Virus record (IMG/VR): IMGVR_UViG_2713896798_000016
Source: a virus
Lineage: Duplodnaviria; Heunggongvirae; Uroviricota; Caudoviricetes
DNA: 28,031 bases
Direction: 5' to 3' (one strand)
Below are positions 15,001-18,000 of the stretch, piece after piece. Made by a program: the position numbers. Positions within the stretch are counted from its first letter, which is position 1. Each line of letters starts with the position of its first letter.

Positions 15001-18000
15001 AGGCGCAGATATTCCGCCTTCTCCATGGTTTCAGCAGTCGCCGGGGCAGATGAAATCATCACCTGCGTCAGCTGTGAACGTTCATACAAAGCAGACATTC
15101 TGCCTCCTGATAATAAAAAACCCGCACGCGGCGGGTTATGGGTTCTGTTGAAAAAATTACACCGTGACCTGAAACTCCAGGGTTGCACGGTAACAGCGGT
15201 TTTCCGGAATATAGTCCTGCATTTCACTGACGGATCCCGGGGCCAGCAGCATTATGGCTTCACGGGCGTCCTGACGTATCTGACGCGCCTGCGTCACAGT
15301 CCCGGCATAAACGTCTATCTGCACCGACACTGAGGACTCCGCCTGCCCGCCCATCACGTCCGCCGACACCGATGAAATCAGGCTGAAAACCACCCACGGA
15401 AGCGCCACCGACGGCCTGCCATCCAGCAGGGGGACCACATACGGGTACACCTGCCCGCCGGCAAGATGCGCCAGATGAGGATACAAATCCGCCTCCGTCA
15501 TCGTCTCAGTACCTCATCAATGGCCCGGTTCATCCGAGCAATCGCCACCTGTGCCGCCTGTTCACTGCGCACATCAAATGCCGGGCGCACAAACGGGTGC
15601 GGTGGCATATTCACGGTCCCCATTTCCACAAACCGCCAGTAGAAAGCATTGCGCGGGTTATCCGCCTTCATGGTGTTATCGCTGTTACCGGTGTCCGGAT
15701 TAACACCACGGATATGGACACCGGATTCCATACCGCCATCGCGGGAGCGCCGGGAAAGGACCACCACATTGCGGCGCAGTTTTCCCCTGCGCACCGGTGC
15801 CCGTGACACCACTTCTTCTTTCAGCACATTCGCACCCGCACGGGTTGCCTCACGCAGCACCCGGTTATTTTCCGCACCACTCAGAAGCTGCAAATCGCGG
15901 CTGATGTCCTCCAGCCCCGAAAAATCCAGCAGGGTTTCGATCATTTTTCCCCTCCCAGCCGACAGAGAATTTCCAGACGCCCGCCGGTCGCATCCGGCAC
16001 GGGCAGCCCGACAACGTTCAGGATCCGGTCACGCCATGGACCACTCAGCACATGAAGTCGTGACGCTGCCGTGATTTCCCGACCGGACTGACCGCGCACC
16101 CAGATGCGGATTTCCGCCTGCGCCATTTCCGCACCGGACTGCATCCGCTCCCGGCTGCTCCTGCCACGGATATCCGCATGAATTTTCCCGCATGACACCC
16201 ATTCTTCCGTCATTTCTCCGGCAGCATTACGGGTTAACACCGGGTTCAGAACACTTATCATCTGTGTCAGACGACCTGCAGATATTGCCATTCCCCCTCC
16301 TCATAACACCGTCGGACAACGCAAATCGTAAATCAGCACGGAAACAGAAAACGGCAGCTCCCCCTGAAGCAGTTCTTCCCGCTCCGCAAGATCCGGATTC
16401 CGGTACAGCATCCCGGTCAGTCGCATGGCAGCCCCCTTCATCCGGGTTAATGCCTCGCCCGGGATCAGTTCACCGTCCTCACGAATCACCTTATCCCGGC
16501 TGCCCTGAATGTAGGCCAGCAGCACGGCGGTAGCCTGACGAACCTTGTCCATCAGCATGTCATCATCCGCGTCATGGTCGACACGCAGATGTGCCTTGAT
16601 CTCTTCCAGCGTCAGTAATGCCGTCATTTTCCGCCTCCTGCATCCCGCCCACGTTTTGCAGCCAGGGTCCAGCCTGATGAATGAGCTTCTCCGGGTTTAT
16701 CACCGGTCATACTGTTGCAGTGCCACAGCGAGCCCCCCCACGTCACCGTATCGCCGGGGTGGTAGGTTTCACCGGCTCTGAACACACCGCGGTAGAGCAT
16801 CACCGGCAGGGAAAATGTTTTTTCCGTACACTGGCCACTGCTCTGCCGGACCACCACAGAGAACAACCGTTCACCCGTCATGCTGACGTCAATATCCGCC
16901 ACCCCGTCAACCAGGCATTCCCATCCCCGCATCCCGTGCGTTTTTTCATACGCCCGCCAGAGTCCGCCCTGGTGTGTGGCATACGTGCCCCGGGGAAAGG
17001 ATTTTTGATCGTCAATGGCAGGGAGTATTTCCAGTGCAGTGGCATCACGCCCGTCCTGCGGAGCCGGCAGGGCACTCACCGCATCCAGAACAGCCTTCTG
17101 CAGAACATCGGGATCATAGTCACGACCATCACGCGGAACAGGAATATGGCTTACCGCCTCCTTCACCATCTGTTCAAGCATCGGACGCACATCATCCGGG
17201 GTGATACTTTTACCGTCTGCCGGCTGCGGAATATTTGCGACCGCATCATTCACCGCCTTCTGCAGAACATCCGGATCGTAGTCACGACCATCACGCGGAA
17301 CAGGGATATGGCTTACCGCCTCCTTCACCATCTGCTCAAGCATCGGACGCACATCATCCGGGGTGAGACTTTTACCGTCCGCCGGCTGCGGAATATTTGC
17401 GACCGCATCATTCACCGCCTTCTGCAGAACATCCGGATCGTAGTCACGACCATCACGCGGAACAGGAATATGGCTCACTGCCTCTGTCACCATCTGTTCA
17501 AGCATCGGACGCACATCATCCGGGGTGAGACTTTTACCGTCCGCCGGCTGTGGAATATTTGCGACCGCGTCATTCACCGCCTTCTGCAGAACATCGGGAT
17601 CATAGTCACGACCATCACGCGGAACAGGAATATGGCTTACCGCCTCCTTCACCATCTGTTCAAGCATCGGACGCACATCATCGCCCGTCACGCACTTCTG
17701 TAATACCACAGACAGGGAAGCCAGTTTTTCTTCAAACGTTTGTGCCTGCGCGGCTATTTTCCCCTCAAATGTGCGCTGTAAATCCGCCAGCACTGCGGAA
17801 AATTCTTCACCCAGCGCACGGATAATGGACAGTTCACGTTCATTCATTTTTTCAGAATCCCCCTGAACATCGCCTTCACCGCATCATGCTCTGTTTCAGT
17901 GATTGCCTTATTACCGTCAGAGGCAGCGACCGCCTGAGGCACGGAAGCTGTTTTACCGGACGACGCGAACGGATCTTCACGGGCATCACGGCGGGACAAC

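Follow-up and report, generated by a model that had tools for sequence, protein, structure and literature searches.

The late operon of phage HK97 reportedly contains putative factor-independent terminators, which Juhala et al. are said to have described in 2000. The HK97 record (NC_002167) carries features annotated as "terminator putative" before the major tail gene, gp4, the tape-measure gene (TMP), I and J. In phage lambda, a hairpin followed by a T7 run stands 20 nt before gene E, and another hairpin precedes J. Intra-operon terminators have been described as common and "not unique" in lambdoid late operons, with roles unknown to the authors, who name as candidates either partial termination or the stopping of transcription that has begun without antitermination (PMC8022706).

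Here we analyse two sites of this kind in a genome fragment of a tailed phage (IMG/VR record IMGVR_UViG_2713896798_000016), the whole 28,031-nucleotide stretch being referred to below as the window. Its structural genes resemble a lambda-type late operon, i.e. one long sense operon (lysis, head, tail) that lies downstream of Q/PR' in intact relatives. Judged by their sequence, the two sites are ordinary examples of the putative terminators that have long been annotated between structural genes in phages of the HK97 and lambda kinds.

Hairpins upstream of the capsid and major tail genes

Site 1 is a hairpin on the minus strand (15119..15137, -10.1 kcal/mol) inside the 58-nt gap between the tail terminator/tail completion gene (15157..15501, minus strand), whose stop codon lies 19 nt 5' of the hairpin, and the gene of the major tail (tube) protein (14382..15098, minus strand; 238 aa, ending in an Ig-like domain at the C-terminus). 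The arms AACCCGC (15137-15131) and GCGGGTT (15125-15119) form a 7-bp stem around the loop CGCGT. A T6 run starts at 15120, at the base of the stem, and together with an AU-rich spacer and the Shine-Dalgarno (SD) sequence AGGAGG (15108-15103) makes up the 19-nt core TTTTTTATTATCAGGAGGC (15120-15102, minus strand), followed by the start codon ATG (15098-15096). This ATG, and not the upstream GTG at 15227, is by comparison of sequences the true start of the major tail gene, because the homologs align from residue 1; database records draw the start of the gene through the hairpin, and it is corrected here.

Site 2 lies on the same strand (21379..21396) in the 63-nt gap between the gene of the terminase large subunit (21421..23082, minus strand), which is upstream, and a gene encoding a fusion of prohead protease and major capsid protein of the HK97 type (19420..21357, minus strand; 645 aa, PF04586 + PF05065). 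Its hairpin reads GGACCGC / TGCG / GCGGTTT (-10.0 kcal/mol), so that its stem and loop differ from those of site 1. The T7 run (21381-21375) begins at the stem base, and the 19-nt core TTTTTTATTTTCAGGAGGC (21380-21362, minus strand) again includes a T-run and the SD AGGAGG (21368-21363), with a GTG start codon at 21357-21355. Right after the stop codon of the capsid gene there is a further hairpin, GGGAGGC / GTGT / GCCTCCC (19386..19403, minus strand), which lacks a T-run; the gene is thus bracketed by site 2 on its 5' side and by the hairpin 19403-19386 on its 3' side.

The succession of hairpin, T-run and SD that the earlier note had seen before both genes is borne out: the sequence reads as described, and site 1 as well as site 2 is picked out by a terminator scan, each on the coding strand. 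Both combine a stem-loop (7-bp stems with four to five GC pairs, loops of 4-5 nt, about -10 kcal/mol) with a U-tract that adjoins the stem (T6 in site 1, T7 in site 2), as intrinsic terminators do; the stem energies are only moderate, which counts against a terminator. Neither gap contains an ORF.

Other identities of the sites were considered as well. The TATTAT within the core was rejected as the -10 element of an internal promoter, as no -35 element accompanies it and no sigma-70 promoter was found on the sense strand in 12000-28031. Rfam yields no match at the gathering threshold anywhere in the window, and the matches to isrK (RF01394; 24.7 bits vs 50 required), isrD (22.7 vs 37) and the Trp leader (21.9 vs 41) stay below the thresholds of these known families. 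All three end in the T-run of site 1, which, as judged from the match ends, is consistent with a generic terminator-like 3' module. Nor do the 66-nt, Hfq-bound small RNAs HnrS / EcOnc10-12 of the Sakai prophages, or the other EcOnc entries compared, match the cassettes or any other part of the window; EcOnc10 maps to 2234239-2234287 in Sakai, beside a DUF3950 gene between HNH and Rz, a region without a match in the window.

Terminator-like hairpins across the late operon

The two sites do not constitute a special two-copy cassette, since the tape-measure and gpK-like genes are preceded by the same architecture. A third hairpin, AAACCTGC / TGTG / GCAGGTTT (13667..13686, minus strand), overlooked in the earlier note, is followed by a T-run, GGAG and the tape-measure ATG at 13645, and has counterparts in relatives (loci L123, L124, L127-L130 and L132) and in HK97, namely the terminator annotated before TMP (8398-8422). 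A fourth, GACCCAGC / TTCG / GCTGGGTT followed by TTTTATCAGGAG (5182..5201, minus strand), precedes the ATG (5164) of a gpK-like gene with JAB and NlpC/P60 domains. Yet another hairpin with a T-run, GCCCACC / GTCA / GGTGGGT (6805..6822, minus strand), comes directly after gpL and marks the proximal edge of a moron (arc/ant) that has been inserted between L and K. The fourth hairpin abuts the ribosome-binding site of K and also closes this moron, supplying the terminator for ant, which lies upstream; the HK97 morons gp15 (upstream of the tape-measure gene) and gp22 have the same kind of end. In contrast to such moron terminators, sites 1 and 2 occupy gaps with neither an inserted gene nor a sense-strand promoter.

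Essentially every non-overlapping junction of the late operon in the window contains a hairpin, and each junction longer than 40 nt has one. In this it differs from lambda, where no such hairpin is found before V, H or I. The hairpins are also strongly biased to the transcribed strand: under strict settings, seven terminator-like sites fall on the coding strand and one on the other strand in positions 1-23700, shuffled sequences giving 0.32, and in 14 relatives the corresponding numbers are 49 and 14. The idea that the cassette marks the two most highly expressed genes stands only in part: the genes were correctly identified as encoding the capsid fusion and the tail tube, but the same architecture precedes the low-copy tape measure and K and, in HK97, I and J.

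Of the annotated HK97 terminators, the one at 6692-6719 is the ortholog of site 1 both by position and by sequence. It stands 13 nt before the ATG of the major tail gene, with the stem AACCCGCC-AGAT-GGCGGGTT similar to that of site 1, a T-rich run, CCAGGAG and then ATGTCTGCA, and is flanked by orthologous genes (48% identity for the tail terminator and 67% for the major tail subunit). The HK97 terminator before the separate protease and capsid genes is analogous rather than orthologous to site 2, because the head modules differ: the window has its protease-capsid fusion directly after terL, and the TerL proteins are only 23% identical. A further difference is that the window has the full AGGAGG and two nearly identical cores, while the cores of HK97 are not so alike.

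Conservation among relatives and the likeness of the two cores

The arrangement recurs in related phages, whose genomes the earlier note had proposed to search for the 19-nt core: it occupies the corresponding junctions of Enterobacterales and of some betaproteobacterial relatives, with different stems. In all 14 complete Enterobacterales loci (capsid identity 70-77%) and in two partial ones, the capsid start is preceded at a distance of about 23 nt by a hairpin with a T-run, which is kept, with other stems, in four betaproteobacterial loci. The alphaproteobacterial relatives of the capsid gene have no hairpin before it; therefore, it is dispensable for capsid expression as such, which is a point against the terminator interpretation. 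Among 20 aligned relatives the T columns are invariant. At the capsid site 96% of the stem cells are paired, and at one position C-G is swapped for A-U or G-C. The covariation is thin (double changes at one pair, in three sequences) because the sequence of the stem is mostly conserved, and the argument from conservation rests instead on the recurrence of the hairpin at the same position with different stems at the other sites. The cassette is found with other stems before five homologs of the major tail gene, and seven other relatives, which have a non-homologous gene of 160-166 aa at this position, also carry a hairpin cassette in front of it.

Within the E. coli lineage (40 capsid-anchored loci from a protein-anchored scan of IMG/VR, comprising E. 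coli-type loci of 95-100% identity only and unbiased within the lineage), the core of site 1 is unchanged except for rare single differences. What varies is the loop, the spacer upstream and how long the T-run is; otherwise the stem, the T-run and the SD are nearly invariant.

The cores of sites 1 and 2 are identical at 18 of 19 positions, so that the single difference reported earlier is confirmed, and a pattern search with up to three mismatches finds exactly these two sites in the window. Shuffled sequences predict 0.02 such sites, but this random-sequence null overstates the surprise. In 38 other cross-site comparisons of cassettes from the window, 11 relatives and HK97, the best ungapped 19-nt match ranges from 10 to 17 of 19, so that 18/19 marks the upper extreme of a distribution that is broad yet constrained, with 17 and 16 as the values next below it; between sites 1 and 2 of the relatives outside E. 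coli the likeness is lower, 12-15 of 19. The identity of the cores most likely reflects shared constraints (the end of the stem, T6-7, the AU-rich spacer and YCNGGAGG) and not a mobile unit.

Possible roles and comparison with known systems

We consider it reasonably probable, from the composition and placement of the sites, that both are sense-oriented intrinsic (Rho-independent) terminators, overridden by Q and packed against the SD of the next gene. Among the three readings proposed earlier, the Q-antiterminated terminator fits best with the anatomy, the strand bias, the positional conservation, the HK97 ortholog and the location of Q upstream in intact relatives; however, the window itself contains neither Q nor PR'. 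An IS66 element and an integrase have taken the place of the sequence upstream of terS, and the Q-proximal part has been lost. In the intact prophage Sp12 of strain Sakai, site 2 (2231087) lies about 10 kb downstream of Q (2241082-2241771) on the same strand. In the Stx phages of this strain late transcription proceeds from PR' via antitermination, and its Term-seq data come from uninduced cells (PMC7547250).

From these observations we infer that the sites terminate transcription, that Q ensures read-through and that the hairpins insulate the genes behind them. Unmodified RNA polymerase, whether it arrives by read-through, from a spurious start or from a moron promoter, would stop in the U-run just 5' of the ribosome-binding site. 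The genes for capsid, tail tube, tape measure and distal tail would thereby be kept off in the lysogen, and their expression would depend strictly on Q. That Q-modified RNA polymerase reads through downstream terminators is a textbook property of lambda Q, and during lytic growth the Q-modified polymerase from PR' would pass every terminator. The transcribed hairpin may then act as a structural boundary, so that each block of translationally coupled genes begins with an unpaired U-rich leader and consensus SD. A point against this interpretation is that, with incomplete read-through by Q, terminators placed ahead of the virion proteins needed in the largest amounts would act contrary to the required stoichiometry. 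In a more elaborate and very doubtful version, terminator, U-run and SD would form one obligatorily coupled device, in which the U-run releases unmodified polymerase and serves as an S1/standby platform in Q-read-through transcripts, the capsid and tail copies of the E. coli lineage having been driven to one optimal 19-nt sequence by selection (or gene conversion). Were it true, there would be a functional reason for placing terminators directly 5' of the most abundant virion genes and not after them.

A role in the stability or processing of the late mRNA is unlikely as the main explanation, although it could coexist with termination and may be a second role of the sites. Here the late transcript would be cut, e.g. 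by RNase E in the AU-rich U-run, and the hairpins would shield the preceding segment from exonucleases at its 3' end, or would close off the capsid and tail segments on their 5' side, giving longer-lived capsid and tail messages. U-rich stretches beside a stem resemble the contexts targeted by RNase E, and the bracketing of the capsid gene by site 2 and a GC-rich hairpin devoid of a T-run is in keeping with such protection, as are the counterparts of the latter in relatives (L125, L132, L150, L151/154) and in HK97 (5192-5213), and the hairpins found after the major tail gene in several relatives and in HK97. However, a stability hairpin has no need of a T-run abutting the stem, which is nevertheless kept at essentially every site, and the window has no hairpin after its own tail gene, where the gap is only 5 nt. 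Processing by RNase III is ruled out on general grounds, 7-bp stems being too short for this enzyme. It is much less likely that the sites are high-expression translation cassettes, whose U-rich leader would bind ribosomal protein S1 and whose AGGAGG would be kept unstructured by the hairpin, the likeness to a terminator being incidental. Both genes do have the full AGGAGG at a spacing of 4-5 nt behind an AU-rich leader, centroid folds leave most of the SD region unpaired, and the output of lambda late genes is said to be governed mainly by translation initiation (reportedly the conclusion of Sampson et al. in 1988). Nonetheless, a U-rich enhancer does not require a GC hairpin, the hairpins track the transcribed strand and stand before the low-copy genes mentioned above, and relatives in which the SD has weakened to GGAG or TGGAG still retain the hairpin and the T-run.

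Attenuation, in which partial terminators would adjust the molar ratios among the late mRNAs even when the polymerase carries the Q modification, corresponds to one of the two roles proposed for intra-operon terminators (PMC8022706). We regard it as highly improbable at these sites, as their position would reduce the capsid and tail-tube mRNA relative to the terminase and connector mRNA, the opposite of the virion stoichiometry. The least probable possibility in our estimate is a portable or copied unit, with one core copied from the other by gene conversion or illegitimate recombination, or with a mobile cassette residing at module or moron junctions. The 18/19 identity, the highest of all cross-site values, would agree with copying, as would the lower likeness of the two sites in relatives outside E. 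coli. Of the module-junction idea of the earlier note there survive the mosaic break at TerL|capsid (TerL identities of 59-84% or 22% against a steadier capsid) and the coincidence of terminators with moron insertion points (arc/ant between L and K; gp15 and gp22 in HK97). Otherwise it is largely unsupported: an exact scan of IMG/VR for the 19-nt core returns at least 140 matches, and every match listed comes from one of these two gene contexts and from no other; the break between head and tail in relatives falls at Ad1|head-closure gene, which rules out site 1 as a mosaic junction; the stems and loops differ, and what is shared consists of individually constrained elements; and neither flanking repeats nor mobility genes are present.

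The putative intrinsic terminators described here have little significance beyond annotation, and the finding alone opens no new line of inquiry. Nevertheless, the strong conservation of these sites and the medical relevance of the phage family would make them convenient test cases for the role of intra-operon terminators, a question acknowledged in the literature (PMC8022706). Among described systems, the P22-like phage L has predicted Rho-independent terminators within a single-promoter late operon, at the ends of modules (PMC8022706). It differs in having a podovirus virion module, and its described terminator follows the procapsid module instead of directly preceding a capsid or tail gene. 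A more distant parallel is offered by Tn916 and by the conAn system of Gram-positive conjugative elements, in which several terminators, located inside a long operon or at its edge, reportedly prevent premature expression until antitermination encoded by the element overrides them; these elements and their antitermination machinery are unrelated to the phage, and the likeness is one of logic only. In the BP-4795 / Stx1-type prophage family, as in HK97, every boundary between blocks of the late operon carries a conserved terminator-like hairpin.

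Anatomy of the paired sites and of the surrounding operon

The hairpin, T-run and Shine-Dalgarno (SD) sequence that the earlier note had described before two structural genes were re-read from the window and are correct as written, including the single difference between the two 19-nt cores, which comprise the stem end, T-run, AU-rich spacer and SD. At site 1 (minus strand) the hairpin (15137-15119; AACCCGC, loop CGCGT, GCGGGTT) is followed by T6, and the core (15120-15102) contains AGGAGG (15108-15103) ahead of the ATG at 15098 of the major tail gene, which encodes a tail-tube protein bearing a C-terminal Ig domain. 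At site 2, also on the minus strand, the hairpin (21396-21379; GGACCGC, loop TGCG, GCGGTTT) is followed by T7, and the core (21380-21362) contains AGGAGG (21368-21363) ahead of the GTG at 21357 of the prohead-protease/major-capsid fusion. Each hairpin has a folding energy of about -10 kcal/mol, both sites are listed on the coding strand by a consensus terminator scan, and no sense-strand promoter is predicted near them. A search of the window for the core pattern, allowing up to three mismatches, gives these two sites and no others, with 0.02 occurrences expected from shuffles; the paired observation is real and non-random.

The true start of the major tail gene, judged from alignments, is ATG 15098, giving a predicted protein of 238 aa, because its alignments with five homologs from other genera and with the major tail subunit of HK97 begin at residue 1. 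In database records, that of BP-4795 (NC_004813, ORF64, 36187-37032) among them, the start is placed at an upstream GTG, which adds window positions 15099-15227 (minus strand); the CDS is therefore drawn through the hairpin, with a 71-nt overlap with the tail-terminator gene. A second small hairpin (GGCAGA-AUG-UCUGCU, 15085-15108, minus strand) is predicted; the start codon of the tail gene would lie in its loop, and the SD region would be partly paired.

The window holds an E. coli prophage that has undergone rearrangement and belongs to the BP-4795 / Stx1-Stx2c phage type (Marienburgvirus-like); the surroundings of both sites are 99-100% identical to BP-4795 and many Stx-converting phages. 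The late operon runs down the minus strand in the order terS, terL, protease-capsid fusion, small ORF, portal, 407-aa ORF, Ad1, head closure, gp10-like, tail terminator, major tail, G/T chaperones, tape measure, M, L, an arc/ant insert, K, I and J. An IS66-family element (9545-11961, plus strand; HTH transposase ORF, TnpB_IS66, DDE_Tnp_IS66) interrupts the tape-measure gene, leaving the parts 11948-13645 and 7863-9491. On the upstream side of terS, and close to it, a second element with the same three genes (23808-26423, minus strand) and a tyrosine integrase gene (26766-28031, minus strand; Arm-DNA-bind_3, Phage_int_M, Phage_integrase), itself followed by a hairpin after its stop codon (26762-26743), stand in place of the lysis/Q region of intact relatives. 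The integrase occupies the place of the HNH, Rz and lysis genes of intact relatives, and homology to Sp12, a prophage of strain Sakai, stops at about 23771; Q/PR' does not adjoin the structural genes here. The 407-aa ORF (16624-17847, minus strand) contains a 162-nt tandem repeat (17093-17682; 54 codons, 3.6 copies, 95% matches), the copy number of which seems to vary among prophages; its counterpart in BP-4795 is labelled a second 'portal protein' (461 aa), and in Sp12 one 2580-nt portal gene is annotated across both ORFs.

Other hairpins and conservation in relatives

A stricter scan of window positions 1-23700 found seven terminator-like sites on the coding strand versus one on the other, with 0.32 expected from composition-preserving shuffles. 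Of these seven, the intergenic ones apart from sites 1 and 2 are three: a hairpin, T-run and GGAG (13686-13667) ahead of the tape-measure gene (ATG 13645), a hairpin with TTTTATCAGGAG after it (5201-5182) ahead of the gpK-like gene (ATG 5164), and a hairpin with a T-run (6822-6805) directly behind gpL; a GC-rich hairpin without a T-run (19403-19386) lies after the capsid stop codon. The remaining late-gene junctions overlap or leave gaps of at most 9 nt; therefore hairpins stand in virtually all true intergenic gaps, dividing the operon into blocks of translationally coupled genes. Sites 1 and 2 do precede the tail and capsid genes, but other gaps carry hairpins too, so that an association with the two genes expressed most highly describes the arrangement incompletely.

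The motif is present in related phages: the exact 19-nt core has at least 140 matches in IMG/VR, and all of those listed lie in the same two gene contexts. For the capsid site, we aligned 73-78%-identical capsid homologs and then scanned a single genome of each species. A hairpin and T-run lie about 23 nt before the start codon in all 14 complete Enterobacterales loci and in two partial ones; Diaphorobacter, a Burkholderiaceae MAG, Snodgrassella and Candidimonas also have them, with different stems, and the hairpin is absent in the alphaproteobacterial relatives scanned. Stem cells are paired in 96% of cases and one position changes from C-G to A-U or G-C, covariation proper being thin because the stem is otherwise conserved in sequence. 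At the tail site, hairpin, T-run and SD recur in five tail-gene homologs, but the stems differ (CCCGC-TTCG-GCGGG, ACCGCC-N4-GGCGGT, ACCGC-TTCG-GCGGT). In seven relatives the major-tail position is occupied by a non-homologous gene of 160-166 aa, likewise preceded by a hairpin and T-run, as is the tape-measure gene in several relatives. In an E. coli sample picked by capsid protein rather than by motif, changes fall in the loop, upstream spacer and T-run length, while stem, T-run and SD are almost invariant.

When sites of the window, 11 relatives and HK97 were compared with one another in 38 further combinations, the best ungapped alignment over 19 nt gave 10-17/19, so the 18/19 seen here stands at the upper end of a class under strong constraint (stem end, T6-8, AU-rich spacer, YCNGGAG). 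Capsid and tail cores of non-E. coli relatives match at only 12-15/19, and there may have been some lineage-specific convergence or conversion of the cores in E. coli.

Possible roles of the hairpins

We consider it probable that the sites are sense intrinsic terminators abutting the next ribosome-binding site, which stop polymerase lacking modification by the phage antiterminator Q and are read through by Q-modified polymerase. The anatomy, the bias towards one strand, the conserved positions, the orthology of site 1 to an annotated terminator and the location of Q upstream in intact relatives are observed, whereas termination, passage with Q and insulation are inferred from them; each structural-gene block would then be Q-dependent and silent in the lysogen. 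The tight hairpin-SD spacing would represent compaction, and a U-rich unstructured leader would be left ahead of a strong SD. In intact relatives Q lies upstream; in Sp12 the Q gene is on the same strand, about 10 kb upstream of site 2, and late transcription of the Stx phages of strain Sakai is under PR'/tR'/Q control (PMC7547250).

The other explanations are partly non-exclusive. That the hairpins serve as mRNA stability or processing boundaries, as their presence on both sides of the capsid gene would suggest, is possible though rather unlikely. A dedicated translation cassette is improbable, the same architecture being found ahead of low-copy genes, and attenuation more doubtful again, since its polarity is wrong for virion stoichiometry. 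Least probable is a copied or portable unit: the earlier note had offered a portable cassette marking module junctions as one of three readings; nothing points to mobility. The marking of junctions holds in part. The head/tail module break in relatives, according to per-gene identities across loci, lies between Ad1 and the head-closure gene and not at site 1, but the TerL|capsid junction (site 2) is a break (TerL is 59-84% identical, 22% in betaproteobacteria, with the capsid steadier), and terminators coincide with insertion points of extra genes. Here the insert between L and K (5219-6814), bounded by the hairpins at 6822-6805 and 5201-5182, encodes on the minus strand a 348-aa antirepressor of the P22 type (P22_AR_N, P22_AR_C) and, divergently on the plus strand, a 114-aa ribbon-helix-helix repressor that is Arc-like; BP-4795 has no arc/ant insert at this junction.

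Comparison with known RNAs and phages

Rfam gave no match at the gathering threshold in the whole window. The only sub-threshold matches at site 1 are isrK, isrD and the Trp leader, all ending in the T-run, which is consistent with a generic terminator-like 3' module. The match to isrK, a Salmonella prophage sRNA (24.7 bits versus 50 required, E 0.046; 15115-15210, minus strand), covers the site 1 hairpin together with the last part of the tail-terminator gene, and is most likely generic, since the other two stop at the same T-run. The multicopy prophage sRNA HnrS (EcOnc10-12), located between HNH and Rz, was rejected as an identity because it is not in the window.

The sites belong to an ordinary, already annotated kind of feature. 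The HK97 GenBank record has a "terminator, putative" (6692-6719) 13 nt before the major tail gene, and its sequence AACCCGCCAGATGGCGGGTTTTCTTTTTccaggagacagctATGTCTGCA can be recognized by eye as the element found at site 1. Identity between the HK97 proteins and those of the window is 48% for the tail terminator, 67% for the major tail protein, 63% for G and 59% for the tape measure. Site 1 is the ortholog of this HK97 terminator; site 2 is of the same type but belongs to a different head module. In HK97, terminators are also annotated ahead of gp4 (protease), the tape-measure gene, I and J, and behind gp5 (capsid) and the major tail gene. The remaining curiosities are the near-identity of the two cores within the E. 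coli lineage and the putative function of terminators placed inside antiterminated phage operons. Such terminators are described as common in lambdoid late operons, and partial termination, or the halting of spurious transcription begun without antitermination, has been proposed for them (PMC8022706). Phage lambda (NC_001416) has GGCCGC-CTGT-GCGGC and T7 20 nt before gene E, the major capsid gene (6080-6134), and a further hairpin before J (15445-15504), both unannotated in the RefSeq record.
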